From Candidatus Woesearchaeota archaeon (GTDB taxonomy: Archaea; Nanobdellota; Nanobdellia; Pacearchaeales; GW2011-AR1), in contig CAZSPD010000002.1 of assembly GCA_964608765.1 (NCBI GenBank), positions 50,205 through 114,204 on the forward strand: a stretch of DNA of 64,000 bases. Reading direction: 5' to 3'. The notes under the pieces were generated by a model that was not told the DNA's origin, ran no database searches, and saw nothing but the letters and a program-made list of their open reading frames with translations. Within the stretch, counting starts at the first letter, position 1, and the number at the start of each line of letters is the position of its first letter. Positions 10,911 to 24,975 of the stretch are shown here, piece by piece. A program made the position numbers and the translations under genes.

Positions 10911-12437
10911 ATGGAAAATAATTCCAACATTGGTCTTGAGAGAAAACTTTGGGCAGCTGCAGATAAACTTAGGAGTAATATGGATGCTGCAGAGTATAAG
11001 CATGTTGTTTTAGGACTTATTTTCTTGAAATATATATCTGATTCTTTTGAAGATGCATATAAAGAGATTAAGGCTGATCCTGATGGAGATCCTGAAGATA
11101 TTGATGAGTATAAAGCGAGGAATGTCTTTTGGGTTCCGCTTGAGAGTAGGTGGGGTTATTTACAGAAGAATGCAAGGCAACCAACAATTGGCAAACTTGT
11201 GGATAGTGCTATGGATGCTATTGAGCGTGAAAATACTTCATTGAAAGGAGTTTTACCAAAAGATTATGCAAGAGAAGCATTGGATAAAACCCGTTTGGGA
11301 GAGTTGATTGATTTAATTGGAACTATTGGTCTTGGAGATAAGGCAAGCAAGGGCAAAGATATGTTGGGTCAAGTTTATGAGTATTTTCTTGGACAATTTG
11401 CAGATGCTGAAGGAAAAAAGGGAGGTCAATTTTACACTCCAAAATGCATTGTTAAACTTCTTGTTGAAATGATTGAGCCATTCAGAGGAAGAATTTTTGA
11501 CCCTTGCTGCGGTAGCGGGGGAATGTTTGTTCAATCAGAGAAGTTTGTTGAAGAGCATTCAGGAAGAAAAGGAGACATTTATGTTTATGGTCAAGAGTCA
11601 AATTCTACTACTTGGAAACTTTGTAAGATGAATATGGCGATTAGAGGCATAGATTCAAATATCCAATGGGGAGATAGTTTGCATGATAACAAGCACAAGG
11701 ACTTGAAAGTTGATTATATTCTCGCGAATCCTCCTTTTAATGATTCTGACTGGAATGGGCATTTGTTGAAAGATGATGTTCGTTGGAAATATGGAGTTCC
11801 TCCTACAGGGAATGCGAACTTTGCGTGGGTTCAGCATTTTATTCATCACCTCTCTCATAGGGGAATTGCAGGGTTTGTTTTAGCTAATGGCTCTATGTCC
11901 TCAAATACTGGAGGTGAAGGAGAAATAAGAAAAAGAATAATTGAAGATGATTTAGTTGATTGTATGGTTGCTTTGCCTTCTCAGTTGTTTTACAATACAA
12001 TGATTCCTGCATGTTTGTGGTTTCTAACTAGAGACAAGACCAATCATGGCAAGAGAAAAAGAACAAATGAGATTTTGTTTATTGATGCAAGGAACATGGG
12101 GACAATGATTGACAGAAGGCACAGAGAATTAACTGATGAAGATATAAAGAAAATAACTGACACTTATCATGCCTGGAGAGGAGAAGAAAAATCAGGAAAG
12201 TATGAAGATGTTGCGGGTTTTTGCAAATCAGCAACTCTTGAAGATGTTGAAAAGAATAATTTTATCCTCACACCCGGAAGATATGTTGGTGTTGCAGAGG
12301 AAGAAGACGATGGCGAGCCTTTTGAGGAGAAGATGAAGAGATTGACTGAAGAATTGAAGGGTCAGTTTGAAGAAGGGAAGAGGTTGGAGAAGGAGATAAA
12401 ATTAAATTTGGAGAAGATTGGTTGGAGTATTAAATAA
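10911..12437 (+). CDS. hsdM: Type I restriction-modification system, methyltransferase subunit
   Basis: N-terminal HsdM domain ([32 protein letters not shown]), AdoMet motif [10 protein letters not shown] and catalytic motif LANPPFN. Confidence 0.95.
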
Positions 12438-12470: not shown

Positions 12471-13793
12471 ATGCTTACAAAAATTGATATAGAAAAATTG
12501 ATTGTAAATCCTGAAAATTATAGGTTTGATCCAGTGGATACTCAAAATCAGGCAATTGAGTTAATGCTTGAAGAGAAAAATGAAGAAATTTTTAATTTAG
12601 CAAAACACATAATTGAAAATGGATTAGATAAAGCAAAAAATCTGAGAGTAGTGGAAATAAAAAAAGATTTATTTAAAATTCTTGAAGGAAATAGAAGAAT
12701 AACTGCGATAAAATGTTTATTGGACCCATCAGTAATTAAAAGTGATTCTTTAAAAAATAAATTTAAAAAATTAATTGACGAATCAAAAAAAGAAAATAAG
12801 GTGATTCCAACCAAGATTAGTTGTTTTATTTATAAAAGCGAAGAAGAAGCAGCTAAATGGATTAAACTGGATCATACTGGAAAAAATAAGGGAGTAGGCC
12901 TTGATGAATGGGGCCCTGCAGAAAAAGAAAGATTTGCTTATAAGTTTGAGGGAAAGATAAGTCCTGCTATGCAAATTGTAAATTTATTTGAGGTAGAAAC
13001 AAACTCTAAGATTGACAAAAATAAATTAAAAATTTCTACAATAAATCGTATACTTTCTAATTCCGAGTCTAGATCCTATTTAGGAGTAGACATAAAAAAT
13101 GGAAATTTAGTATTAACGTCAAATAAAAAAGAGGTTTTGGGAAGGATAGACAAACTATTTAATAAAATGTTGACAGAAGATATTACAGTTTCTGAAGTTT
13201 ATCATACAAGTGATTCTATTAAATTTATGAAAAATTTATTTGGAGAAAAACCTGTTGCATTAAAGAAAAAAACAGTAGTCCAATCCAAAATTTTGCAGGA
13301 TAAAAAAATTAAGAAAGTAAATATTTTGCCTAAAACAAATGGTAGAGAAGTTTTAATTCCTTATTCGTGTGGATTGATTATTCATGAAAAAAAAATTAAT
13401 AATATTTACCATGAATTAAGAAATCTTTCAATTTCAGAATATACAAATGCTGTAGCTGTTCTTTTTAGGGTATTTTTAGAGACTAGTTTAGATTGTTATG
13501 CTGAAAAATACGGGATGCAATTTAACAACCTTACTAAACTATCTGGTAAAATAACCAAAGTTGCCGACGAATTAGAAAAGGGAAAGACTGCCACAAATAA
13601 TCAATTAAAAAACATTAGAAATGTTGCTACAAAAACAAATTCTATTTTATCAATAGGAAATTTTCATGAATATGTTCATTCCTTTAAAAGTCAACCAATA
13701 CCCAGCGATTTAGTTTATTCATGGGATAATTTACAGGAATTCTTTGAAATTATCTGGGGAGAAATCTCAAGGAAAGAAGGTAAAACAAAATGA
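12471..13793 (+). CDS. ParB/Srx-fold N-terminal domain protein with an unassigned helical C-terminal half
   Basis: LIVNPENYRFDP and ILEGNRRITAIKCL resemble the ParB N-terminal box and the GERRxRA-type arginine patch. 440 aa. Its stop overlaps the next gene's start (ATGA). Confidence 0.55.
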   Translation: MLTKIDIEKLIVNPENYRFDPVDTQNQAIELMLEEKNEEIFNLAKHIIENGLDKAKNLRVVEIKKDLFKILEGNRRITAIKCLLDPSVIKSDSLKNKFKKLIDESKKENKVIPTKISCFIYKSEEEAAKWIKLDHTGKNKGVGLDEWGPAEKERFAYKFEGKISPAMQIVNLFEVETNSKIDKNKLKISTINRILSNSESRSYLGVDIKNGNLVLTSNKKEVLGRIDKLFNKMLTEDITVSEVYHTSDSIKFMKNLFGEKPVALKKKTVVQSKILQDKKIKKVNILPKTNGREVLIPYSCGLIIHEKKINNIYHELRNLSISEYTNAVAVLFRVFLETSLDCYAEKYGMQFNNLTKLSGKITKVADELEKGKTATNNQLKNIRNVATKTNSILSIGNFHEYVHSFKSQPIPSDLVYSWDNLQEFFEIIWGEISRKEGKTK

Positions 13794-14638
13794 CATTTTA
13801 TTCACCATTAAGATATCCAGGCGGGAAAGGAAAATTAGTTAATTATTTTAAAAAAGTATTCAAAGAAAATTCTCTTGATAAGGGGATTTATGTTGAGCCT
13901 TACGTTGGAGGAGCATCAATTGCACTTTCACTTTTAATTGAAGGCTATGCATCAAAGATAATTATTAACGACAAAGATAAATCAATTTATGCTTTTTGGT
14001 ATTCTGTTTTAAATTATCCAAATAAATTATGCAACTTGATAAAAAAAACTCCAGTCAATTTAAAAATAAGAGAAGAACAAAAAAAGATTCAAGAAAACAA
14101 AGAAAAAGAGAATTTACTGACAGTAGGTTTTTCCACTTTTTTCCTTAATAGAACAAATCATTCGGGAATAATCAAGGCAGGGGCAATAGGGGGATTGAGC
14201 CAAGAGGGGAAATGGAAGATTGATGCAAGATATAACAAAGAAGAATTGATTAAAAGAATAAGGCAAATCTCTAAATACAAAGATAAAATTGAACTTTATA
14301 ATGAAGATGCAGTTGATTTAATAAAAAAACTCAAAAAAAAATTACCTTCAAAAACCTTAATCTATCTTGATCCTCCATATTATAACAAAGGAAAAGAACT
14401 CTACATGAATTATTATTCTGATGAAGACCATAAAAAAATAGCTAAAGAAATAAACAAGACAAAAAAACAAAAGTGGGTTATCACGTACGATAATGTTGAA
14501 TTTATTAAAAAATTATACGAAAATAATAAACAAACAAAATATGATTTATATTATAGTGCAGGAAAACCGAAACAAGGAAAAGAATTAATTATCTTCTCTG
14601 ATAATGTTAAAGAACTAAACCCGATGATGGTGAAATAA
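13790..14638 (+). CDS. Dam-family (D12 class) N6-adenine DNA methyltransferase
   Basis: LRYPGGKGKL, EPYVGGASIAL (AdoMet motif) and LDPPYY (catalytic DPPY). Confidence 0.85.
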   Translation: MTFYSPLRYPGGKGKLVNYFKKVFKENSLDKGIYVEPYVGGASIALSLLIEGYASKIIINDKDKSIYAFWYSVLNYPNKLCNLIKKTPVNLKIREEQKKIQENKEKENLLTVGFSTFFLNRTNHSGIIKAGAIGGLSQEGKWKIDARYNKEELIKRIRQISKYKDKIELYNEDAVDLIKKLKKKLPSKTLIYLDPPYYNKGKELYMNYYSDEDHKKIAKEINKTKKQKWVITYDNVEFIKKLYENNKQTKYDLYYSAGKPKQGKELIIFSDNVKELNPMMVK

Positions 14639-14639
14639 A

Positions 14640-15266
14640 ATGAATAAGAGAGGACAATCAGTAGATGTAACTGGAATAATTGGAGTAATTCTTTCTTTGT
14701 TTTTTGTGATTATATTTATTTCTGCAATAATTCCGGTGTTTAATTCTATTAATGGAAATGATGATTTACAAAAAGAGATAAATAATAAAAATAATCAAAT
14801 ATCTAATTTAGAACTTGAAAATTCTAAATTACAAAATTCCATTGGAGAATTAAATTTAAGAATAGTTGAGAAAGATAATCTAATTTCAAATTTAAGTTGG
14901 CAGTTTAGTGAAAAGGAAAAAAATTTTACGGAATCATTTAATCAAATTATCACGGAAAAAGAAAAATCAATTTCTAATTTAGGTGAACAATTAATTGAAA
15001 AAGATAAACAAATTGAAAATTTAACAAACGAGCTTGAAAATTACAGAGAAAAAGATTATCTGCCATCAATAAATAATAATTATTACAATATCTTAAATTA
15101 TATGGGAAGTATTGAAAACAAATTTTATACAATTAACCTTGCGGTTGGATTAATCTCTCTAACTCTTACAGGAATTGTAATAAAGTTATTTGGTTTGGAT
15201 GTTAAAATTAAATTTCTATTTAGGAAACTTAAAAGGAAAAAGGAGAAAAAAGAAAATGTTTCCTAA
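14640..15266 (+). CDS. Coiled-coil protein with N- and C-terminal TM helices
   Basis: TM helix at residues about 10-33, a heptad-rich N/E/K/L middle with the recurring ISNL motif, a second TM near the C-terminus and a basic tail. Confidence 0.5.
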   Translation: MNKRGQSVDVTGIIGVILSLFFVIIFISAIIPVFNSINGNDDLQKEINNKNNQISNLELENSKLQNSIGELNLRIVEKDNLISNLSWQFSEKEKNFTESFNQIITEKEKSISNLGEQLIEKDKQIENLTNELENYREKDYLPSINNNYYNILNYMGSIENKFYTINLAVGLISLTLTGIVIKLFGLDVKIKFLFRKLKRKKEKKENVS

Positions 15267-15441
15267 AAAAAGGAGAGTTAGTTTTTGGGCAACTAAAAAA
15301 ATTCCAAAAAAAGCTACTGTAAGCTTCAGAGATAGTTCTGGAAGAAGGGTTTCATTTACAGCTACAAAAAGGGTCCCGAAAAAAGTCAAAGTTAATTTTT
15401 GGGCTAGTAAATCCGGAAAGCCAATAAGGAGGAGGAGATGA
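15256..15441 (+). CDS. Small, highly basic tandem-repeat peptide (possible PIN partner)
   Basis: AGGAG lies 10 nt upstream of the ATG at 15256. Contains RRVSFWATKKIPKKATVSF and RRVSFTATKRVPKKVKVNF repeats. Its stop overlaps the PIN gene start. The longer 15190 start in the ORF track lies inside the previous gene. Confidence 0.4.
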   Translation: MFPKKRRVSFWATKKIPKKATVSFRDSSGRRVSFTATKRVPKKVKVNFWASKSGKPIRRRR

Positions 15442-15971
15442 TGAAAATTTACATAGACTCAAATGTCTTTGTATCTTATGTTAAGAGAGATGAGGGTCAG
15501 AACCATAAAGATTCTAAATCTTTTTTAGAATTTATATTGAGAAACAATTTTGAAGATGTTACTTTCTTTACATCAAGGTTTACAGAAGTGGAAGTAGGTT
15601 CTGCAGTTTATAGAAGAAGTAAACAACAAAATCAAGCCAGAGCAACATTACATCGTCTAACTCGTGCATGGGCAAATAAAATTTTTCCCTTGCCAGAGAA
15701 TCCATCGGAAAAAATTAAGATAGATAATTTAATAGTAAAATTGGTTGAAACTGCTCTAAATTATGGAACAACTTTTGGAGACACCATTCATGCAAACGAT
15801 GTAGAGAGCTACGATGTAGATTATTTAGTTACATGGAATCTTAGAGATTTTAAAAAACTAGAAAAGAAGATAAAGAAGGTTAAGGTCCTAACTCCTACAG
15901 GTATGCGGGAAATATTAGAGATGGGAAAAAGAAATAAACTCAAACAATCTGCAATAGGAAAAATAAAATGA
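15438..15971 (+). CDS. PIN-domain nuclease (VapC-like)
   Basis: IYIDSNVF (first Asp), TEVE, GDTIHANDVES and LVTWNLRDF follow the PIN acidic-residue order. Confidence 0.65.
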   Translation: MMKIYIDSNVFVSYVKRDEGQNHKDSKSFLEFILRNNFEDVTFFTSRFTEVEVGSAVYRRSKQQNQARATLHRLTRAWANKIFPLPENPSEKIKIDNLIVKLVETALNYGTTFGDTIHANDVESYDVDYLVTWNLRDFKKLEKKIKKVKVLTPTGMREILEMGKRNKLKQSAIGKIK

Positions 15972-16891
15972 ACCAAAAAAACAAAAAGCCAACTACAGCC
16001 AATTTGAAAAAGATACTTAAGAACCCTGATAAGATGACTGATTTTGTAAGAAAAAATCTACTTGGAAATAATCAATTTATCGACCTACTAACTAATTTTG
16101 ATAATTATTTTAATGAGTTAAAAAAACAAGACCATATTTGGAAAGAGAATTTAGTAGAAAATGAAGAGCTTGAAAAAAAGTATGAAGAGTTAATTAACAA
16201 AATTGATAGCATAGATAAAATCAACCCGCCAAATATAACGCCTCAGGAAGCGACTTTTGAAATGAATAAATTTTCAGAGAATAATATGTTTATCTATATG
16301 GAACTAAGTAAATTTATTGGTAAAAAGGAAGAAGATCCCATACCTGGAGACATTTATATTTTGGCCAATCTTTATCGGACAGTCTTAGAATTATATAAAA
16401 AAAATATGAAAGTTTGGCTTCCGAGTTTTGGCCAGTCTTTAAATGTTGGAAAAGGAACGATGAAGAAGTTAAAAAAAGGTAAAATTGAAATTGGAACATT
16501 CTTAGAACTGATTAAACAATTTGATAAGAATTTTCAAACAGATTATTATCCGACTTTCGTAAAATATATAGATTCTGATTTAAGAAATAAAATTGCTCAC
16601 GAACAATATTATATCGGAGAGATTTTGGTTAATATGCCTGATGGCTCCCAGGTAAGTAGCATTGGCTTTATAGGAGATGATAAAAAAATTTATTCTGCTG
16701 CAGATTTAATCAGTAAAATAAAAAGAGCTTACATATTTTTACTATTAACTATATTTAAGAATGGGTTTGGAAGATACGCATCATTATCGTCATCACAAAA
16801 CGATCTTGAAGAAATAAAGAAGAATCCTAAATTATTTGAGCAGGTTTTAAAAAAACAAATAGGAAATATGGGGAGCAAATATGCAAAATAA
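15968..16891 (+). CDS. Hypothetical protein with a HEPN-like Rx4H motif
   Basis: 307 aa. The C-terminal half contains DLRNKIAHEQYY (R-N-x3-H as in Abi-type HEPN domains). It has 4-nt and 11-nt overlaps with the flanking genes. Confidence 0.4.
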   Translation: MNQKNKKPTTANLKKILKNPDKMTDFVRKNLLGNNQFIDLLTNFDNYFNELKKQDHIWKENLVENEELEKKYEELINKIDSIDKINPPNITPQEATFEMNKFSENNMFIYMELSKFIGKKEEDPIPGDIYILANLYRTVLELYKKNMKVWLPSFGQSLNVGKGTMKKLKKGKIEIGTFLELIKQFDKNFQTDYYPTFVKYIDSDLRNKIAHEQYYIGEILVNMPDGSQVSSIGFIGDDKKIYSAADLISKIKRAYIFLLLTIFKNGFGRYASLSSSQNDLEEIKKNPKLFEQVLKKQIGNMGSKYAK

Positions 16892-17912
16892 ACCTAAGAA
16901 AACTGAAATGGGGAACTCAGAGAGAACTCTAATTATCTTCGATACAAATAATCTACAAAATACTCTTGATGGAGAATCGGATTATTCTACTTTTGACCCA
17001 AAAGGAGATATAAAGAAATTAAGAGATTTTATATCAAAAAACAATTTACAAGATAATATAATAATAGGATTGTCTGAAATTGTTTTAAAAGAGTATTGCA
17101 ACCATAGAAAAACTGATTTTATTAAAAAATTAGATCAATTTAAACAATTGCATTCAAAAATGAAAAATCTTAGTTGTATAAATTTTGACAACATTACATT
17201 TCCCCCAGACAATTTTGATTATGGAAATTATATTTATGACAAAATTAGAGAAATTGTTTCAAACGAAAATAGTATATTCATTTTAATTCCTATCGAAGAA
17301 GAAAAATGTGGCGAGATATTTAAGAAAATTTTATACAAATCAATAAATCATATTAAACCTTTTGATGAACGAGGTGATAAAGGTTTTAAAGATGCAATAA
17401 TTTTTGAATCATTAATAAATTTTCAGATAAAGAATAACTACGCAAAAGTTATTTTATTTAGTAAGGATTTAGGATTTTCTGAAGAATTAAGATGGGAATT
17501 TTCACGATTAACTGGAAAATTTTTAGATATAGAATCAAATTATGAGCTCTTAGAGCAAAATTTAATGGGAGTTTATCATTTAATAGTCAAATATCCGGAA
17601 CTTCTGAATCACTTGAAAACAGATTATTTCAAAGGACAATTAATGGACTATATGTCTGATTTTGAAGGACTCGGAATAAATAATTTTGAGATAATTAACT
17701 GCTGCTCAGGAATTGAAGATTGTAAAAAAGAAGATTTAGAAAAGTTTAGACAGGAAGAGTATTTAGAAGAGGTAATGGATAATTTTAAAATAGTTTCCTT
17801 AGAATTTGAAAATGATGGAAAAGAATATATTGCTGAAGTTTTATTTGATTTAAGCGTAAATGAGATTATTGGTGGAGGCTATGAAGGGAAACAGGAGGTT
17901 CAAGTAATATGA
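16881..17912 (+). CDS. PIN-like domain protein (DUF4935-like)
   Basis: LIIFDTNNL near the N-terminus and a later ERGDKGFKDAIIFESL resemble the PIN-like DUF4935 pattern. Its stop overlaps the hsdS start. Confidence 0.5.
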   Translation: MQNKPKKTEMGNSERTLIIFDTNNLQNTLDGESDYSTFDPKGDIKKLRDFISKNNLQDNIIIGLSEIVLKEYCNHRKTDFIKKLDQFKQLHSKMKNLSCINFDNITFPPDNFDYGNYIYDKIREIVSNENSIFILIPIEEEKCGEIFKKILYKSINHIKPFDERGDKGFKDAIIFESLINFQIKNNYAKVILFSKDLGFSEELRWEFSRLTGKFLDIESNYELLEQNLMGVYHLIVKYPELLNHLKTDYFKGQLMDYMSDFEGLGINNFEIINCCSGIEDCKKEDLEKFRQEEYLEEVMDNFKIVSLEFENDGKEYIAEVLFDLSVNEIIGGGYEGKQEVQVI

Positions 17913-19087
17913 ATGGGAAAATTAATCCTGACTGGGAAATTGCAAAAATAAAAGATATCGGAAAAGTTATAACTGGAAAAACTCCCCCCACTTCAAATAA
18001 AACTTTCTTCAATGGAAAATATCCTTTTATCAAAATTCCCGATATGAATAATTCTGTCTATTTGTCTTTTTCAGAGAGTTCTTTGTCTGAAGAAGGAGCA
18101 AGTCATATGAAAAATTTAATTCTTCCCCCGGACTCTGTAATGGTTTCTTGTTTGGCAACGATTGGGAAAGTGGGAATTACTACAAAAGAATCTTTTACAA
18201 ATCAACAAATTAATTCAATTATTCCAAATAAAAAAATCATTTCTCCCTTGTGGATTTATTACTTTTTTAAGAATAATAAAAATTATTTAGAAAGTCTTGG
18301 TGGCGGAGGTTCAGTTTATATTAACATCTCTAAAACAAAATTTGAAAATGCAGTTATTCCGCTTCCCCCTCTCCCCGAACAACTTGCCATCGCCTCCATC
18401 CTCTCCTCCCTTGACGCAAAAATAGAACTCAACAATAAAATGAACAAAACCCTTGAAGCCATTGGGCAGGCATTGTTTAAGAAATGGTTTGTGGAAAATC
18501 CTGAGAAAGATAATTGGAAAGAGGGGAAATTAGGTGATATTGTGAAATTAAAAATGGGAATTTCTCCAAAGGGGGAAAGTTATAATGAAACAGAAACCGG
18601 TGTTCCATTACTTAATGGGGCGGCAGATTTTTCTGGGAAACTAATAATCCCAAAAAAGTTTACATCCGCTCCAATTAAAATGTGTGATGTCGGAGATTTA
18701 ATTTTTTGTATTAGGGCAACAATCGGAAATATTACTTTTGCAGATAAAAAATATTGTCTAGGGCGAGGTGTTGCCGCATTAGAAATACAAAAGGGATATC
18801 GAGAATTTGTTTATTACCTATTAAATTCTTCATTAGAAGAAATGGTATCTGGGGCATATGGGAGTGTAATAAAAGGGCTATCAAAAATAGATATAGAAAA
18901 TCTAAAAATTACAATTCCGGACAAAGAAACAATATTAAATTTTAATAAAATTTGTTTTCCTATTTTTGAAAAACAATTCTCACTAGATAAACAAAATCAA
19001 ACTCTCTCTCAAATTCGGGATGCGTTGTTGCCTAAGTTGATGAGTGGAGAAGTGAGGGTTTCATTATGTGAGGAGAATATAAAATGA
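17909..19087 (+). CDS. hsdS: Type I restriction-modification system, specificity subunit
   Basis: Two target-recognition halves separated by the conserved central region LPPLPEQLAIASILSSLDAKIELNNKMNKTLEAIGQALFKKWF. C-terminal conserved region LSQIRDALLPKLMSGEVRV. Confidence 0.9.
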   Translation: MNGKINPDWEIAKIKDIGKVITGKTPPTSNKTFFNGKYPFIKIPDMNNSVYLSFSESSLSEEGASHMKNLILPPDSVMVSCLATIGKVGITTKESFTNQQINSIIPNKKIISPLWIYYFFKNNKNYLESLGGGGSVYINISKTKFENAVIPLPPLPEQLAIASILSSLDAKIELNNKMNKTLEAIGQALFKKWFVENPEKDNWKEGKLGDIVKLKMGISPKGESYNETETGVPLLNGAADFSGKLIIPKKFTSAPIKMCDVGDLIFCIRATIGNITFADKKYCLGRGVAALEIQKGYREFVYYLLNSSLEEMVSGAYGSVIKGLSKIDIENLKITIPDKETILNFNKICFPIFEKQFSLDKQNQTLSQIRDALLPKLMSGEVRVSLCEENIK

Positions 19088-19386
19088 GTTTATTTGGCAA
19101 TTTATTTAATTTTAATATAAAAAATTTAATTATTCAAGGAAGAGTGGATATTGCCTACGATAAAATATATAATATGGCAGAAAAAATAACGGTCCATGAG
19201 TTAAAATTGCATCAATCCAATTTAGTTCATAAATATGGAACCAAAGCAATACAAGGAAAAAATTATAATCTTTTGGAAGAGGTGAGTAAATTGGAAAATT
19301 GGAAATTTAAAAGAATTCAATATCACATAAACGAAATGAAAGAATTATTAAAATTAAGAGAAAAATTAAAGGAGAATAAAGGATAA
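19084..19386 (+). CDS. Hypothetical helical protein
   Basis: 100 aa, ATGA overlap with the hsdS stop. No motif. Confidence 0.4.
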   Translation: MSLFGNLFNFNIKNLIIQGRVDIAYDKIYNMAEKITVHELKLHQSNLVHKYGTKAIQGKNYNLLEEVSKLENWKFKRIQYHINEMKELLKLREKLKENKG

Positions 19387-19832: not shown

Positions 19833-21212
19833 ATGGACATAGACCAAGTCTTAAGAGTCATAGAATCTGGAGAATCTCAAGAAGTTGAGTTTAAAGAATC
19901 ATTTCATAGTTCTCAAGATTTTTCAAAAATAATGTGTGGATTTGCAAATACTTATGGAGGAGTTATTCTGATAGGGGTTAATAATAAAAAAGAGGTTGTA
20001 GGAGTAAAAGATAATTTAGACAGCCTTCAACAAAAAATATCTTCTTCAGCTCAAGCAGTTTCTCCTCCGATATTTCCATCAATAGAAACTCATAAAATTA
20101 AAGGAGCGGACGTAATATCTATAGTTATACAGCAAGCAATAGACAACACATTTCATAGTTTTCAAGGAGTTATCTATGTAAGGATTGGCAGTACTTTAAG
20201 AAAGATAGAAGGAAATCAAATAGTTGATTTCTTGCGTGGGAAACAAATTCTATGTTTTGATGAAACTATAAGTAACGCTAAACTTACAGATTTGGACCTT
20301 AATAAAATTAAAGAATATCTAAATATAAGGAAACAATCAGATTATTTTAAATCTCATTCCAGTGAGGATTTTTTGTTAAGCATGAAATTGGCTTCAAAAA
20401 ACGGAGAGTTTAAAGTAAAAAACTCTGCCTTACTGTTTTTTGCTAAAGACCCAATCTTCTTTAATCCCCAAATAGAAATTAAAGCAGTTAGATTTGACGG
20501 CACAGAACCAGTTAAAATAATTTCCCATGAATTAATCCAATCAAATTTGACCGAATCAATTGAAAAGGCTTTATCTTTCGTAAAGAGTAATATTTCAAAG
20601 AGTATTAATATTAAGTCTGAGGCTAAACGAGAAGAGAAATATCAATATCCTTTGGATGTCATCAGAGAAGCAATAGTCAATGCAGCGGCTCACAGAGATT
20701 ATTTTAGTAAAGATTCTATTCAAATTTATATCTTTTCAGATAGAATAGAAATGACTAATCCTGGGTCTTTACCTAAGGATTTGCCTAAGGAGTTATTTGG
20801 CACCCTTTCTGTTCAAAGAAATCCTCTGACCTATAGGATTTTAAGAGATTATGGATTTGTTGAAGGCTTGGGATCTGGAGTTCCTAGAATGATTAATAGT
20901 ATGAGGGAACACGGCCTTTCTGATCCAGAATTTGGAATATATGAACATTTTTTCAGAACAATTTTGCGAAGCACACAAAGTGAACTAAAGCCCATTAAAA
21001 AATATCAAGACTTAAATGAAAGACAAATAAAAACCTTAGAATTTTTGAAGAAGAATAGATCCATAAAAACAAAAGCATATACAAAATTAAATAGAGTCTC
21101 TTTAGGTACTGCTAGGCTAGACATTAATGAGATGCTTAAATTTGGTTATATAAAAAAAGTAGGTGCTTTCAGGGGAGCCTATTATATACTAAATGAGGAT
21201 AATAAAAAATGA
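19833..21212 (+). CDS. AlbA_2 (Schlafen-like divergent AAA) / HATPase_c_4 / C-terminal wHTH protein
   Basis: [10 protein letters not shown] and [13 protein letters not shown] (AlbA_2), [13 protein letters not shown] and [11 protein letters not shown] (HATPase_c_4-like), and a C-terminal wHTH-like [21 protein letters not shown]. Its stop overlaps the hsdR start. Confidence 0.7.
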
Positions 21213-24200
21213 AAATAACAGAAAACGAAGTTGAAGGATTAGCACTGGATATTTTTAGAGAAATGGATTATAAAGTCCTTAATGGACTTGAAATATCTCC
21301 TGGAGGAAGTAAACAAGAAAGAAACGATTTCAGAGAAGTTATCTTAAAAGAAAGATTATTGAATTCTATTGGAAGAATAAACCCCAACATGCCTAAAGAC
21401 GCATTGGAAGATGCCATGAAAAAAGTTTCAAGAGTTTCCTCTCAAAACCAAGTTCTTGACAATCAACAATTTCACAAATTATTAACAGAAGGGGTTCCAG
21501 TATCTTTTAGAAAAGGGCAATCAACAAAACATGAGATTATAAATTTAGTTGATTTTGAAAATCCAAGCAAAAACGAATTTCTTGCAGTTAATCAATTTAC
21601 TATAATTGAAGGTAAGTGTAACCGAAGGCCAGACATAATTCTTTTTGTAAATGGCTTGCCTTTGGCAGTAATAGAGCTAAAGAATCTTGCAGAAGAAAAA
21701 GCAACAATTGATGATGCATTCACACAACTTCAAAATTACAAGATGCAGATTCCTTCCTTGTTTAGATTTAATGAAATTCTTATGATAAGTGACGGAGCAC
21801 TTGCACAGGCAGGGACAATTTCTTCAACAAGAGAGTGGTTTGTTGAATGGAAAACAATTGATGGTAAAATGCCAAAGAATAAGCTTAGTATGGATACATT
21901 ACTAAGAGGAATGTTTAACAAAAAAACCTTTTTAGATTTAATCAAAAATTTTATTGTTTTTGAAAAAGATGAAGAAACAATAAAGAAAATTTCTACTTAT
22001 GCCCAGTATAATGCTGTAAATAAAGCAATTGATTCAACAATAAAAGCAGTTAAAGGAAATAAAAAGGCAGGAGTTGTATGGCACACTCAGGGATCTGGAA
22101 AATCCCTTTCAATGGTTTTCTATTCTGGAAAACTCGCATTGGAAAAAGAGCTTGAAAATCCAACAATTGTTGTTTTAACAGATAGGAATGATTTAGATGA
22201 TCAATTATTTAAAACATTTTCAAGATGTTCTGAGCTTTTAAGACAAGAGCCAAAAAATGCAGGATCAAGAAAACAAATTAAAGAGCTTTTGAAGAAATCC
22301 TCTGGAGGCATTATTTTTACTACAATTCAAAAATTTTCTCCAGAAAAAGATGAAAAATTTCCTGAGCTTTCAGATAGAAGAAATATAATTGTTATTGCAG
22401 ATGAAGCGCACAGAACCCAATACGGTTTTTCAGCGCATGTTGTTCAAACGAAGGATGATGGAGCCCTCATAAGATATGGTTTTGCTAAATATTTAAGAGA
22501 TGCCTTGCCAAATGCTTCATTTATCGGTTTTACTGGGACACCTATTGAAAAACAGGACAGGTCAACTCCTGCTGTCTTTGGAAATTATGTTGATAAGTAT
22601 GATATACAACAAGCAGTTGAAGATAAAGCGACTGTTAAGCTTTTATATGAAAGTCGACTGGCTAAACTTGGGATAAAACCGGAAGAAAGAAGAAAAATTG
22701 ATCCCTTTATTGAAGAATTAACAGAAGATCAGGAAGTAAAGAATAAACTAAAGAGCAAATGGGCTAAACTTGAAAAGGTTGTAGGTAGTCCCGAGAGAAT
22801 AAGACGAGTGGCAAAGGACATTATTGAGCATTTTGAAGAGAGGTTGAAAGTCCTTGATGGAAAAGCCATGATTGTTTGCATGAGTAGAAGAATTTGTGTT
22901 GATTTGTACAATGAGATAATTTCTTTAAGACCAGAGTGGCACAACAAAGACGACAAAGAGGGAATAATAAAAGTAATCATGACTGGTTCTTCTTCTGATC
23001 CAACAGAATGGCAAGAACATATAAGAAACAAAAAGAGGAGAGAAAAAATTGGAGATATGTTTAAATCTCCTAAAGAAGAATTGAGAATCGTAATAGTTAG
23101 AGATATGTGGCTGACTGGTTTTGATGCTCCCTCTGTCCATACAATGTATATTGACAAACCAATGAAATCTCATGGACTAATGCAGACAATTGCAAGAGCA
23201 AACAGGAAATACAAAGACAAGGATGCGGGATTGATAGTTGACTATTTTGGAATTGGAAAAGAACTAAAAGATGCAGTCATGCAATATACTGCTAGTGGTG
23301 GAAAAGGCAAGCCTATTTTTGAACAAAGTGAAGCAGTCAAGAAAATGTTGGAAAAATATGAGGTTGTCAGAGATATGTTTTATGGATTTAATTATAAGAA
23401 ATTCTTTACCTTAAATCCAAAAGAACGACTTTCAGTAATTCCAAATGCTGTGGAGCATATTTTGAAGGGAAAAGAAAAATTAAAAGAAAGATTTATCAGA
23501 GAAACAAGCGCTTTAATTAGGGCATTTGCTTTGTCTGTTCCAGATGAAAAAGCAATGCAAATAAAAGAAGAAGTAGGATTTTTCCAAGCAATAAAATCAA
23601 CTATAGTCAAGAATACCATAATATCTTCAAAGGGCTCCATAGAATTTGATACAGCAATTAAGCAAATAATCTCCAAAGCAATCATCTCTGACAGAATAAT
23701 TGATATTTTTGAAGCTGCAGGTGTCCAAAAACCAGACATCTCAATCCTATCAGATAAATTCTTAAGGGAAGTCAAAGAAATTCCTCAAAAGAATCTTGCT
23801 TTTGAAGCACTGAAAAAACTAATCAATGACGACATAAAGGTAAGGTTTAAGAAAAATATTGTTAAAGAAAAATCATTCATGGAAATGTTAGATAAAATAA
23901 TAACAAGATATACAAACAAAAGCATTGAGGCGGCTGAAGCAATAGAAGAATTAATCGGATTAGCTAAGAAGTTTAGAGAAGAACAAAAAGAAGGAAAAGA
24001 TCTTGGCCTAACTGAAGATGAAAAAGCTTTTTATGATGCTCTTGCAGACTGTAAAGAGGCAATAGATGTTTTGGGTGATGAAAAATTAAGAATAATTGCC
24101 CTTGAACTAGTTAATATGATAAGAAATAATGTAAAAGTGGATTGGACAATTAGAGAAAATGTTCAGTCAGATTTAAAATTAAAAGTTAAAAGGATTTTAA

Positions 24201-24310
24201 AGATTCACGGGTACCCTCCTATTGGGAGAGAAAAAGCAATAGATCTTGTTTTAAAACAAGCTGGTGTTGTGGCAGATGATTGGGCAGAAAAGAACCTTTA
24301 TTTTGTTTAA
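21209..24310 (+). CDS. hsdR: Type I restriction-modification system, restriction (helicase-nuclease) subunit
   Basis: 1033 aa. N-terminal PD-(D/E)xK region ([20 protein letters not shown]), Walker [15 protein letters not shown] box [11 protein letters not shown], and a helicase C-terminal domain ([15 protein letters not shown]). Confidence 0.95.
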
Positions 24311-24975
24311 ATTTTTTCATCCTCAACCCAGCTCCAATAACTCTCTTTTCCAAGAATCACATGGTCAAGGACTTTTATGCCTATGAGCTCTCCGACTTCA
24401 ATTAACTTTCCTGTTATATCCAAATCTTCTTTGCTTGGATTTGGATTCCCTGAAGGATGATTATGAACAATAATCATTTTTGATGCTGAATGTTTTATTG
24501 CAGGCTTGAATACTTCTCTTGGGTGCAAAATTGCTGCATCAAGAACTCCCTTTGAAATAAGCTCCTCTTTTAAAATATTGTTCTGGCTGTTCAACAAAAC
24601 AACATAAAAATTCTCCTGTTTTTCATCTTTAAGCCTTTCACAAAACAGCTCAAAAACATCTTTGGCATTAGATATTTTCTTTACTGGTTTTTTTGACTGG
24701 GAATATCTCTTCCCAAGCTCTGCAATTGCCAGGATTTGCATTGCTTTGCTTGGACCTATCCCTTTTATTTTTTCAAGTTCTTTTAAAGAACAATCAAAAA
24801 GGTTTTCCAACCCATTTTCTTTTATCAGCCTGTTAGACATCTCAACAACATTCTCTCCTCTTGTTCCTGTTCTCAGGATAATAGCAAATAATTCAGCATC
24901 ACTTAATGCTTCTTTTCCTTGTTTTAAGAATCTCTCCCTAGGTTTTGAAGAATTTGGGAGATCTTTTATTTTCAT
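24307..24975 (-). CDS. radC: RadC-like JAB-domain protein
   Basis: HhH-like N-terminus ([14 protein letters not shown]) and JAMM motif [22 protein letters not shown]. Confidence 0.9.

Follow-up and report, generated by a model that had tools for sequence, protein, structure and literature searches.

An archaeal ParB-like/HEPN-like protein and its D12-class methyltransferase partner very probably form a diverged PD-lambda-5 anti-phage system

Two overlapping genes of a Candidatus Woesearchaeota archaeon, here called A and B, very probably constitute a diverged archaeal member of the PD-lambda-5 anti-phage system. Protein A matches the PADLOC model PDLC03998 (PD-Lambda-5_A) with an E-value of 1.5e-117, its residues 3-429 aligning to positions 5-464 of 466, and also matches 27 further PD-Lambda-5_A models. 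Protein B matches the PADLOC model PDLC04018 (PD-Lambda-5_B) with an E-value of 1.4e-120 (residues 1-274 of 291). The first-pass annotation of this DNA, made from sequence alone, knew of no named system with this pairing; these matches supply the name. The combination has been on record since 2022, and PADLOC annotation would label it automatically. Membership in PD-lambda-5, combined with a reading of the pair as a methylation-gated sensor-effector, is in our judgement quite likely the best explanation overall. The mechanistic part taken by itself, in which A would be a sensor gated by methylation and equipped with an exchangeable effector while B would provide protection, is a tentative proposal whose chances are at best evenly balanced.

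Results

Gene order and neighbourhood

The window, i.e. the whole stretch of DNA that was analysed, comprises 64,000 nucleotides and contains the pair together with the genes of an apparently complete Type I restriction-modification (R-M) system:

10911..12437, + strand: hsdM of a separate Type I R-M system, context (Pfam N6_Mtase E 5e-115, HsdM_N)
12471..13793, + strand: probable PD-lambda-5 gene A, 440 aa, ParB-like / HEPN-like (ORF)
13790..14638, + strand: probable PD-lambda-5 gene B, 282 aa, alpha-class D12 DNA methyltransferase (ORF)
13790..13793, + strand: ATGA, overlap of the A stop and the B start, 4 nt (sequence)
17909..19087, + strand: hsdS, context (Pfam Methylase_S E 1.6e-50, two stretches)
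21209..24310, + strand: putative hsdR, 1033 aa, context (helicase motifs read in the translation)

The ORF positions, the ATGA overlap and the motifs quoted in the first-pass annotation (NPENYRFDP, ILEGNRRITAIK, PGGKGKL and DPPY) are present as described, and through the overlap A and B may be translationally coupled. The window copy is part of a chromosomal island surrounded by housekeeping genes; the archaeal chromosome has a low GC content and probably belongs to the DPANN, and no integrase was seen near the pair. Downstream of B a membrane/coiled-coil protein gene is followed by PIN-domain genes, which agrees with the earlier statement that no conventional endonuclease stands beside the methylase; Pfam, NCBIfam and PADLOC gave no nuclease family match in A or the flanking genes.

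In the ORF map the pair sits between hsdM and hsdS in a tightly packed gene string. The hsd-operon setting described previously is thus correct for the window, but the position is incidental: within 6 kb of the related loci hsdM was found in 4/68, hsdS in 1/68 and hsdR in 0/68. The Type I system of the same defence island is independent of the A-B pair, and the hsd operon as the functional frame of the pair is rejected on this poor linkage.

Family spread, linkage and conservation

Database searches with A retrieved 517 relatives at E <= 1e-5 (best non-self match 65% identity), and the family profile retrieved 4575 clusters at 50% identity (E <= 0.001); A is therefore not a chance ORF. Across 68 genomes from many phyla a methylase adjoins every intact A gene. 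In 65 of the 68 loci the gene directly downstream of A, with the same orientation, encodes a homologue of B, which bears out the proposal of a single methylase-linked module. The description of the methylase as orphan-looking has to be abandoned, since B is obligately paired with A. Linked pairs occur, among others, in Woese-, Pace-, Parv- and Aenigmarchaeota, Patescibacteria, Bacteroidota, Leptospira, Bacillota and Proteobacteria. Three loci deviate: L068 lies at a contig end, L060 retains a decayed remnant of A, and L058 holds a variant paired with a different methylase. Median identity is 34.5% for A versus 57.2% for B, and in 44 of 50 loci A is the less conserved of the two; this faster change of A is an arms-race signature.

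Domain architecture of protein A

Pfam and NCBIfam scans of A returned no family match. The following features come from structure prediction, structure search and alignment:

12471..12890, + strand: ParB/Srx-like N-terminal domain, residues ~1-140, putative NTP-binding switch (Foldseek)
12507..12533, + strand: NPENYRFDP motif, residues 13-21 (N16 and R18 invariant in both family branches)
12687..12698, + strand: GNRR, residues 73-76, putative equivalent of the ParB GxxRxxA arginine patch
12915..13280, + strand: central domain, residues ~149-270, ParB-like, putative DNA-binding (Foldseek)
13281..13343, + strand: low-confidence linker, residues ~271-291 (pLDDT <50 at 274-287)
13344..13790, + strand: HEPN-like helical bundle, residues 292-440, putative effector (AF2, Foldseek)
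13461..13481, + strand: LFRVFLE helix with invariant R333, F335 and E337 (alignment)
13662..13682, + strand: FHEYVHS with invariant H403, just ahead of the last helix (alignment)

The AF2 model of full-length A has a mean pLDDT of 83.8. The best PDB matches of its N-terminal domain in Foldseek are the CTPases ParB, Noc and KorB as well as sulfiredoxin (probability 1.0, with a modest E-value of 2e-3; entries 7bnk, 7ng0, 6sdk and 8qa8, plus sulfiredoxin), in line with the ParB/Srx-like N-terminus proposed before, and the BFVD matches are dominated by ParB/Srx proteins. Alignments to ParB, Noc and KorB extend over ~270 columns, corresponding to the N-terminal domain plus a helix-turn-helix domain. 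These ParB-fold matches have TM-scores of 0.19 (query-normalised) and ~0.4 (target-normalised) with large rmsd, so the relative arrangement of the domains in A is uncertain. Profile searches of PDB sequences, run with the whole family and with the C-terminal domain, gave no meaningful match and no solved ParB; one match to a lectin repeat was spurious.

Invariant throughout the family are N16, R18, G73, N74, R75, R76, W130 and H135 of the N-terminal domain. The NPENYRFDP motif, which contains the first two, may be the counterpart of ParB box I. Residues 70-81 read ILEGNRRITAIK and include GNRRITA (73-79), whose G73, N74, R75 and R76 are invariant in 24 sequences drawn from the archaeal/CPR/Bacteroidota and the proteobacterial branches. 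By its sequence pattern GNRRxxA fits the ParB arginine patch, and the conserved residues suggest that the domain may bind or hydrolyse a nucleotide (CTP/ATP). Matches to GmrSD_N, weak and far below the Pfam cut-off, occurred in six of 28 relatives scanned singly, the window protein giving none. In the central domain the helices 188-196 and 198-204 are marked by invariant R193, R201 and G205, and the domain may bind DNA. The linker that follows is the most length-variable stretch of the alignments.

Formerly, the C-terminal half was called unassignable. In the structure search it splits into the ParB-like central domain and a helical bundle, whose assignment to HEPN, drawn from a predicted model, is still weak. 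Modelled alone, residues 292-440 reach a pLDDT of 89.3 and a pTM of 0.86, and their best Foldseek PDB matches are mostly HEPN domains (2hsb with probability 0.99 and TM 0.51/0.58; further 5yep, 7ae9, 1wwp, 3o10 and 4nqf, with E-values of 0.1-3). The Rx4-6H motif is absent from the bundle: 70 residues separate the invariant R333 from H403, and the residue about six positions ahead of H403 varies across the family. For this reason we name the domain HEPN-like and not a canonical HEPN RNase.

Alternative C-termini in relatives

Relatives share residues ~1-270 of A and differ in the C-terminus, where three further helical variants of the R...E/H type and a 'FVITAFAGL' domain were found. For the latter the sole lead is a TIR-like match with an E-value of 0.14, a profile search of the PDB being empty. 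In the relatives L058 and P0122/L073 the HEPN-like domain is replaced by a PF18742 DpnII-MboI endonuclease domain (E 9e-33), which also matches models of restriction-endonuclease effectors associated with pAgo; both variants are methylase-linked, one of them with a D12 methylase directly downstream. The first-pass annotation had counted a methylase accompanied by a recognisable endonuclease in relatives as evidence against its reading. Such an endonuclease was unexpectedly found, fused to the ParB-like N-terminus in these two relatives. Its presence in the slot of the HEPN-like domain supports the C-terminus of A as an effector. From these alignments residues ~1-270 appear as the constant part of the protein and the C-terminus as a putative exchangeable effector slot.

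The methyltransferase B

Three motifs were located in B:

13817-13837, + strand: PGGKGKL, residues 10-16
13895-13918, + strand: EPYVGGAS
14369-14380, + strand: DPPY, residues 194-197

With an E-value of 6e-21, above the cut-off, B matches PF02086 (D12-class N6-adenine methyltransferase), which confirms the class given in the first-pass annotation. It scores 66.2 bits against the TIGR00571 dam model, below the cut-off of 114.85, and accordingly does not qualify as a Dam (GATC) orthologue. The closest solved relative, M.CbeI, is an N4-cytosine methyltransferase, so the base modified by B is not settled by homology. Over 59 loci the region contacting DNA (residues 101-160) shows the same degree of conservation as the catalytic core, in keeping with the invariance of R193 and R201 in the helices by which A would bind DNA. 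Avoidance of palindromes was considered as a clue to the motif: the window contains far less GATC than expected (observed/expected 0.31, z -8.6), and depletion is heterogeneous among the carrier loci, with values <0.5 in 24/68. We do not assign GATC as the motif of B, as this conflicts with the prototype system working, with mrr deletion needed, in E. coli K-12, a Dam-positive strain.

Discussion

The PD-lambda-5 system was validated in E. coli and labelled 'ParB/HEPN, methyltransferase' (Vassallo et al. 2022, Nat Microbiol, PMC9519451). Its prototype stems from E. coli ECOR7 (RCQ13837.1 and RCQ13838.1) and works as a two-gene clone that confers broad protection and required an mrr-deleted host (PMC9519451), which suggests that the prototype methylase acts on DNA. 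Protection was strongest against T-even phages, whose modified DNA withstands most R-M systems (PMC9519451); simple site-specific DNA restriction is thus unlikely to be the whole story, and the authors interpret the system as 'RM + Abi' (PMC9519451). Their HHsearch of the prototype listed DUF4145 and HEPN_RiboL-PSP at probabilities of 36% and 8% (PMC9519451).

The window pair shares the two-gene order of PD-lambda-5, with the gene for the ParB-like/HEPN-like protein ahead of that for the D12 methyltransferase. Enterobacterial relatives align with A over the entire length and share the invariant residues, at ~25% identity between the window protein and the enterobacterial branch (the alignment includes a protein 97% identical to a Kosakonia plasmid copy). 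The window protein has 440 aa and the prototype roughly 500, as judged from HHsearch coordinates. Whereas the window copy is archaeal, chromosomal and placed inside an hsd operon, the prototype is from an E. coli prophage.

In the literature searched, which covered mechanism, ParB/HEPN/methyltransferase systems and ParB-like CTP-dependent defence, we found no mechanistic paper on PD-lambda-5, and every mechanistic step given here is therefore our inference. In our proposal B, an alpha-class DNA methyltransferase that uses SAM, would mark host DNA at one fixed short motif, while A would act as a single-chain sensor plus effector. The ParB/Srx-like N-terminal and the ParB-like central domain of A would bind DNA, probably controlled by a bound nucleotide triphosphate, and would engage DNA that lacks the mark set by B. 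Engagement would turn on the HEPN-like domain, a putative nuclease-type effector with invariant Arg333, Glu337 and His403, and activated A would halt the infection, be it directly or through shutdown of the infected cell. On host DNA, methylation by B would hold A silent. Inferred likewise are the methylated base and motif, the nucleic acid targeted by the effector and whether the outcome is direct or abortive.

A more specific version is rather doubtful, namely that A is an immune version of the ParB nucleotide-gated clamp, which loads on the unmarked fixed motif and releases an interchangeable effector, be it HEPN-like, a DpnII-MboI endonuclease or the 'FVITAFAGL' domain, with one motif used family-wide. 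Given that conservation extends both to the DNA-contact region of B and to the helices by which A would bind DNA, all members from DPANN archaea to enterobacteria would then read the same motif. If true, a single protein of 440 aa would link methylation-based distinction of self from non-self to an abortive-type effector, and one motif would serve the entire family, whereas classical R-M systems diversify their specificity.

The strongest competitor of the sensor-effector proposal, unlikely as we judge it, is a plain Type II-like R-M system in which A is a site-specific endonuclease that cuts unmethylated sites, either by a ParB-type nuclease centre or through DNA cleavage by the HEPN-like domain; immunity would be direct and would involve no abortive step. 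The obligate methylase linkage of A would be as expected from such an enzyme, a true restriction-endonuclease domain occupies the same position in two relatives, and DNA-nicking ParB/Srx proteins have been described in the literature. However, window A has no established DNase fold, and swappable C-termini, one of them shared with pAgo-associated effectors, look more like a sensor-effector than a restriction enzyme; the strong activity of the prototype on T-even phages and the 'RM + Abi' reading of its authors weigh against it as well. It is improbable that A watches the methylase or the neighbouring R-M system instead of DNA methylation, with a HEPN-like RNase that fires upon a phage anti-restriction factor or SAM depletion in the manner of PrrC. 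The gene prrC lies inside the hsd operon in EcoprrI, much as the window pair does, the published reading is one of 'compacted RM + Abi', and a later paper explicitly compares the system with PrrC and PARIS. Yet hsd linkage is seen in just 4/68 loci, the pair without A has no restriction component to guard, and the conserved ParB-like DNA-binding architecture favours DNA sensing.

An addiction module of mobile elements, in which loss of the element dilutes methylation, A kills the segregant and defence is a by-product, has a similarly low probability. Relatives occur on a conjugative plasmid, in phages and integrative elements and beside recombinases or replication genes, and the order of A before B, coupled as it may be, resembles toxin-first R-M-like cassettes; the window copy, however, is chromosomal, among housekeeping genes and with no integrase seen nearby, and defence by the prototype was demonstrated directly. 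Addiction is compatible with the sensor-effector proposal and not exclusive of it. Far less probable still is the absence of any defence role, with A a ParB-like regulator or partition-type protein and B an orphan epigenetic methylase. Such a role would be in keeping with the ParB fold of A, with literature descriptions of DndB-type ParB relatives as regulators and with database records that call some relatives just 'ParB N-terminal domain-containing protein', but the full-length match of the proteins to a defence family validated by experiment, the C-terminal nuclease-domain swaps, the faster evolution of A than of B and the defence-island setting speak against it. Hardly credible, finally, is the view of A and B as accessory subunits of the surrounding Type I enzyme: their place between hsdM and hsdS in a tight gene string invites it, but hsdM lies within 6 kb of only 4/68 related loci and hsdR of none, which effectively refutes it, and the prototype functions as a two-gene clone.

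Regarding known systems, GmrSD, BrxU and SspE resemble A, as we read it, in combining a ParB-superfamily nucleotide-switch N-terminal domain with a C-terminal nuclease-type effector in DNA-modification-aware defence. They consist of DUF262 plus DUF1524 HNH, whereas A lacks HNH/DUF1524; they act against modified DNA or detect it and come with no methylase for protection, in contrast to A with its obligate methylase partner. The CTP-dependent clamps ParB, Noc and KorB are the best structural matches of residues ~1-270, with the GNRRxxA patch at the equivalent place; unlike them, A lacks a ParA partner and a ParB-type dimerisation domain and carries the putative HEPN-like effector instead. With PrrC-EcoprrI and other arrangements of R-M plus abortive infection the pair shares, in the published reading of PD-lambda-5, the concept of a methylation-based system joined to a suicide-type nuclease, and in the window also the location in a Type I operon, but it has no ABC-ATPase or anticodon-nuclease domains, and its methylase is a dedicated partner and not part of a full R-M system. 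PD-T4-2 from the same 2022 screen (a DUF262 protein and a HEPN protein) combines ParB-superfamily and HEPN-type domains in anti-phage defence, as A may do, but on two proteins and with no methylase. The PF18742 domain of DpnII/MboI Type II R-M systems is present in the relatives L058 and P0122/L073, while window A has the HEPN-like domain. We know of no classical Type II enzyme with a ParB-like N-terminal two-domain module.

It is reasonable, as the first-pass annotation proposed, to see in A an R-M-like effector that may be switched by a nucleotide, and the comparative data narrow the mechanism down by the obligate methylase link, the constant N-terminal ~270 residues, the exchangeable C-terminus and the unusually conserved DNA-contact region of B. 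From them emerge testable residues (N74/R75/R76, R193/R201 and R333/E337/H403) as well as the one-motif prediction. The PD-lambda-5 family is large (~4,600 clusters at 50% identity) and reaches DPANN archaea and CPR bacteria, whose tiny genomes make their defence repertoire of interest. Moreover, putative nucleotide switches of the ParB fold recur in immunity outside GmrSD, BrxU and SspE.

In E. coli genomes a DNA search with the Kosakonia plasmid homologue retrieved only B-like methylases behind unrelated ATPase/nuclease genes. A protein search starting from the same homologue retrieved relatives from enterobacteria, among them a partial entry of E. coli.

Identity of the gene pair

Two ORFs, A and B, share an ATGA overlap and lie inside an hsd operon, with hsdM upstream and hsdS and an hsdR-like gene downstream. 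This confirms what the first-pass annotation had observed; the four motifs it quoted were also found in place by sequence check.

Features of the A-B locus (window coordinates)
10911..12437, hsdM, upstream of A
12471..13793 (+), A, 440-aa ORF (ORF call); NPENYRFDP at residues 13-21, ILEGNRRITAIK at residues 70-81
13790..14638 (+), B, 282-aa ORF, D12-class methyltransferase (Pfam PF02086, E 6e-21); PGGKGKL at residues 10-16, DPPY at residues 194-197
14640-15266, 208-aa protein combining a hydrophobic segment at its N-terminus with a long coiled coil, starting 2 nt past the B stop
15438..15971, 177-aa weak PIN protein
15968..16891, 307-aa protein with a faint CARF_HEPN match
16881..17912, 343-aa PIN_12 protein
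17909..19087, hsdS, downstream of B
19084..19386, 100-aa ORF, after hsdS
19833-21212, 459-aa protein (domains Schlafen AlbA_2, HATPase_c_4), overlapping the hsdR start by 4 nt
21209..24310, hsdR-like gene, 1033 aa, downstream of B
24307-24975 (-), RadC family protein (NF000642, 251.8 bits, above cut-off), convergent with and overlapping the hsdR end

Pfam and NCBIfam scans recognised no family in A. The PADLOC model PD-Lambda-5_A matched A at E 1.5e-117 (residues 3-429 on 5-464 of the 466-position model), and PD-Lambda-5_B matched B at E 1.4e-120 (residues 1-274 of 291). PD-lambda-5 comes from a functional selection on E. coli isolates that recovered 21 systems in all (Vassallo et al. 2022, PMC9519451). 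The view that no named system has such a pairing is therefore incorrect. Membership of the A-B pair in PD-lambda-5 is very probable, based on the PADLOC models together with alignments to enterobacterial relatives that run end to end. We class the pair as a new archaeal member, much diverged, of a known defence system that already has a name and experimental validation, and not as a new kind of system.

The prototype is a two-gene clone from strain ECOR7 with the entry "ParB/HEPN, methyltransferase", whose cloning required an mrr-deleted host (PMC9519451). Nine of ten test phages were affected, and protection was stronger for T-even phages than for lambda or T7; T-even phages resist most R-M systems (PMC9519451). 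Its HHsearch gave ParBc with 96.4% probability at residues 6-89 and, for the C-terminal part, only 36% for DUF4145 and only 8% for HEPN_RiboL-PSP (PMC9519451). Our search of the later literature found no paper establishing a mechanism for PD-lambda-5.

Domain structure of A

An AlphaFold2 model of A, built with 28 homologues as input, has a mean pLDDT of 83.8, residues 274-287 being disordered. For the N-terminal two-thirds, the CTPase-plus-DNA-binding structures of ParB, Noc and KorB top the Foldseek PDB list (probability 1.0, E about 2e-3, some 270 columns aligned), with sulfiredoxin next, and the matches of A among predicted viral structures (BFVD) are again ParB/Srx proteins. The best viral match to this region is the uncharacterised 252-aa protein A0A7D7IC55 of Vibrio phage ValB1MD-2 (E 1.3e-7, target-normalised TM 0.52), a stand-alone ParB-like sensor part without effector.

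The first-pass annotation had proposed a structure search for the C-terminal half. Residues 292-440, modelled alone (pLDDT 89.3, pTM 0.86), have HEPN domains as the majority of their best PDB matches, among them AF_0298 (2hsb, probability 0.99, TM 0.51/0.58), HEPN-MNT toxins and sacsin HEPN, yet the E-values are only 0.1-3. A contiguous Rx4-6H motif is absent from this domain, which we therefore term HEPN-like and not a canonical HEPN RNase. An alignment covering the archaeal/CPR/Bacteroidota branch and the proteobacterial branch revealed invariant residues in the ParB-like domain (N16, R18, G73-N74-R75-R76, W130, H135, G141, G143, W147, R154), in two short helices of the central domain (R193, R201, G205) and in the C-terminal bundle (R292, R333, F335, E337, H403, P409).

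Linkage, spread and genomic setting

Scanning one genome per species yielded 68 loci encoding an A relative, in DPANN archaea, Methanoperedens, Patescibacteria, Bacteroidota, Ignavibacteria, Leptospira, Bacillota, Alpha- and Gammaproteobacteria and others; the nearest relatives of the pair are in Woese-, Parv- and Pacearchaeota. Conservation across genomes, which the first-pass annotation had wanted checked, holds: in 65 of the 68 loci the next gene downstream, on the same strand, is a B homologue. The exceptions are L068, a locus cut by a contig end, L058, where both the C-terminal domain and the methylase differ and the latter is convergent, and L060 (461-1408), a Clostridia locus where the A-type gene is truncated to 315 aa with no methylase nearby and looks like a decayed copy. 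A-B is a real, well-conserved two-gene module.

Within 6 kb of the A relatives, homologues of the window hsdM occur at only 4 of the 68 loci, of hsdS at one and of hsdR at none, and no other window gene between hsdM and hsdR recurs there. The 208-aa coiled-coil protein is not kept beside the pair in related loci, and the three non-hsd proteins of a five-gene run with overlapping stops and starts, which leads into hsdS (15438-19386), have no homologue at any of the 68. Thus A-B is an autonomous module that sits inside a Type I operon by happenstance, and a role as an hsd accessory, which its position would suggest, is the less likely reading. Housekeeping genes flank the region (NrdJ, NifS/IscS, HisRS, thioredoxin reductase), so the locus is a chromosomal island. 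The host is an archaeon: the window encodes Dph2 of diphthamide synthesis (TIGR03682, scoring above cut-off) and a GluRS of archaeal type. The 459-aa AlbA_2/HATPase_c_4 protein, which also matches PADLOC pAgo and Aga models, may be a further defence or regulatory part of the island.

The A family comprises 4575 members at E <= 0.001 and 1579 at E <= 1e-30 (profile search, 1.84 billion cluster representatives). Among distant relatives, one lies on a conjugative Kosakonia plasmid with an annotated DNA adenine methylase behind it, and others occur in Vibrio and Pseudomonas phage records. In Pseudomonas phage OQ658368.1 (L071, 4400-5227), a B homologue (44% identity, E 1e-63) lies on the opposite strand in an unannotated gap, convergent with an A-like 'hypothetical protein'.

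Exchange of the A C-terminus

B changes far more slowly than A: measured against the window proteins, the median identity of A is 34.5% and that of B 57.2%, and in 44 of 50 loci B is the better conserved of the two. Residues ~1-270 form the constant part of A and are all that matches in 13 of the 68 loci, including the truncated L060 and the contig-end L068. Both an R..(L/I)E helix and a late His are retained in three further helical C-terminal variants. Another variant, of about 170 residues starting FVITAFAGL (L017 6001-7371, L034 5526-6917, L074 5001-6455), has a D12 methylase downstream; no family was identifiable for it, the only lead being TIR-like at E 0.14. At L074 it is surrounded by Phage_CRI, resolvase and replication-protein genes.

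Two protein clusters have a DpnII-MboI restriction-endonuclease domain (Pfam PF18742, E 9e-33) as the C-terminus of A, and PADLOC models of pAgo-associated REase effectors match this domain as well. In these rare fusions it replaces the HEPN-like domain behind the ParB-like N-terminal ~270 residues, next to a convergent N6_N4 (beta-class) methylase at L058 (5992-8549) and with a D12 methylase directly downstream at L073 (5001-7263).

Proposed mechanism

Effector exchange is typical of sensor-effector (abortive-type) defence proteins. This exchange and the prototype's best performance on T-even phages lead us to favour a methylation-gated sensor carrying a promiscuous effector, rather than a site-specific restriction enzyme of the simple kind. 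B would methylate host DNA at a fixed motif; the ParB-like N-domain and central domain of A would engage DNA lacking this mark, probably gated by bound nucleotide by analogy with ParB, KorB, BrxU and SspE; and contact with unmarked DNA would activate the C-terminal effector. As a whole this mechanism is tentative, its chances a little short of even; it is in line with the discoverers' remark "RM + Abi" (PMC9519451).

The main rival, a plain Type II-like action of the pair, we regard as rather unlikely. Guard-type action, addiction only, and a regulator beside an orphan methylase are also less likely than the methylation-gated sensor. The comparative data make the PD-lambda-5 mechanism directly testable: they comprise an obligate link to a methylase, a ParB-like sensor part that stays constant, a swappable effector slot able to hold a restriction-endonuclease domain, and the conserved DNA-contact region of the methylase.

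Specificity and relatives of methylase B

The DPPY motif and the D12 family point to N6-adenine as the target of B; among solved structures, M.CbeI, an N4-cytosine methyltransferase of the alpha class, is nearest to it in sequence, and B scores below the Dam equivalog cut-off. Residues 101-160, between the SAM-binding motifs and DPPY, are presumed to be the DNA-contact region. Their mean column conservation across 59 loci (0.71-0.79) equals that of the catalytic core, which suggests one specificity common to the whole family and would fit the invariant basic residues in the central domain of A.

Of the 4-mer palindromes in the window (1-64000), GATC is depleted far more than any other (48 observed versus 155.5 expected under a Markov model, ratio 0.31, z -8.6); of the 6-mer palindromes, GAATTC is the most depleted (9 versus 26.8). 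GATC was not assigned to B as its motif, since its depletion is inconsistent among carriers (ratio < 0.5 in 24 of 68 loci) and such a specificity would not agree with the prototype's behaviour in Dam-positive E. coli; the depletion has no firm link to the PD-lambda-5 methylase.

Two E. coli chromosomal loci (L075 1930-4579, L076 1424-4136), in an integrative conjugative element and an integrase island, encode a 'DNA adenine methylase' with about 70% DNA identity over ~200 nt to the Kosakonia plasmid B, directly behind an 'ATP-dependent nuclease' or 'AAA family ATPase' gene. B-type methylases seem to be paired with other effector genes as well.
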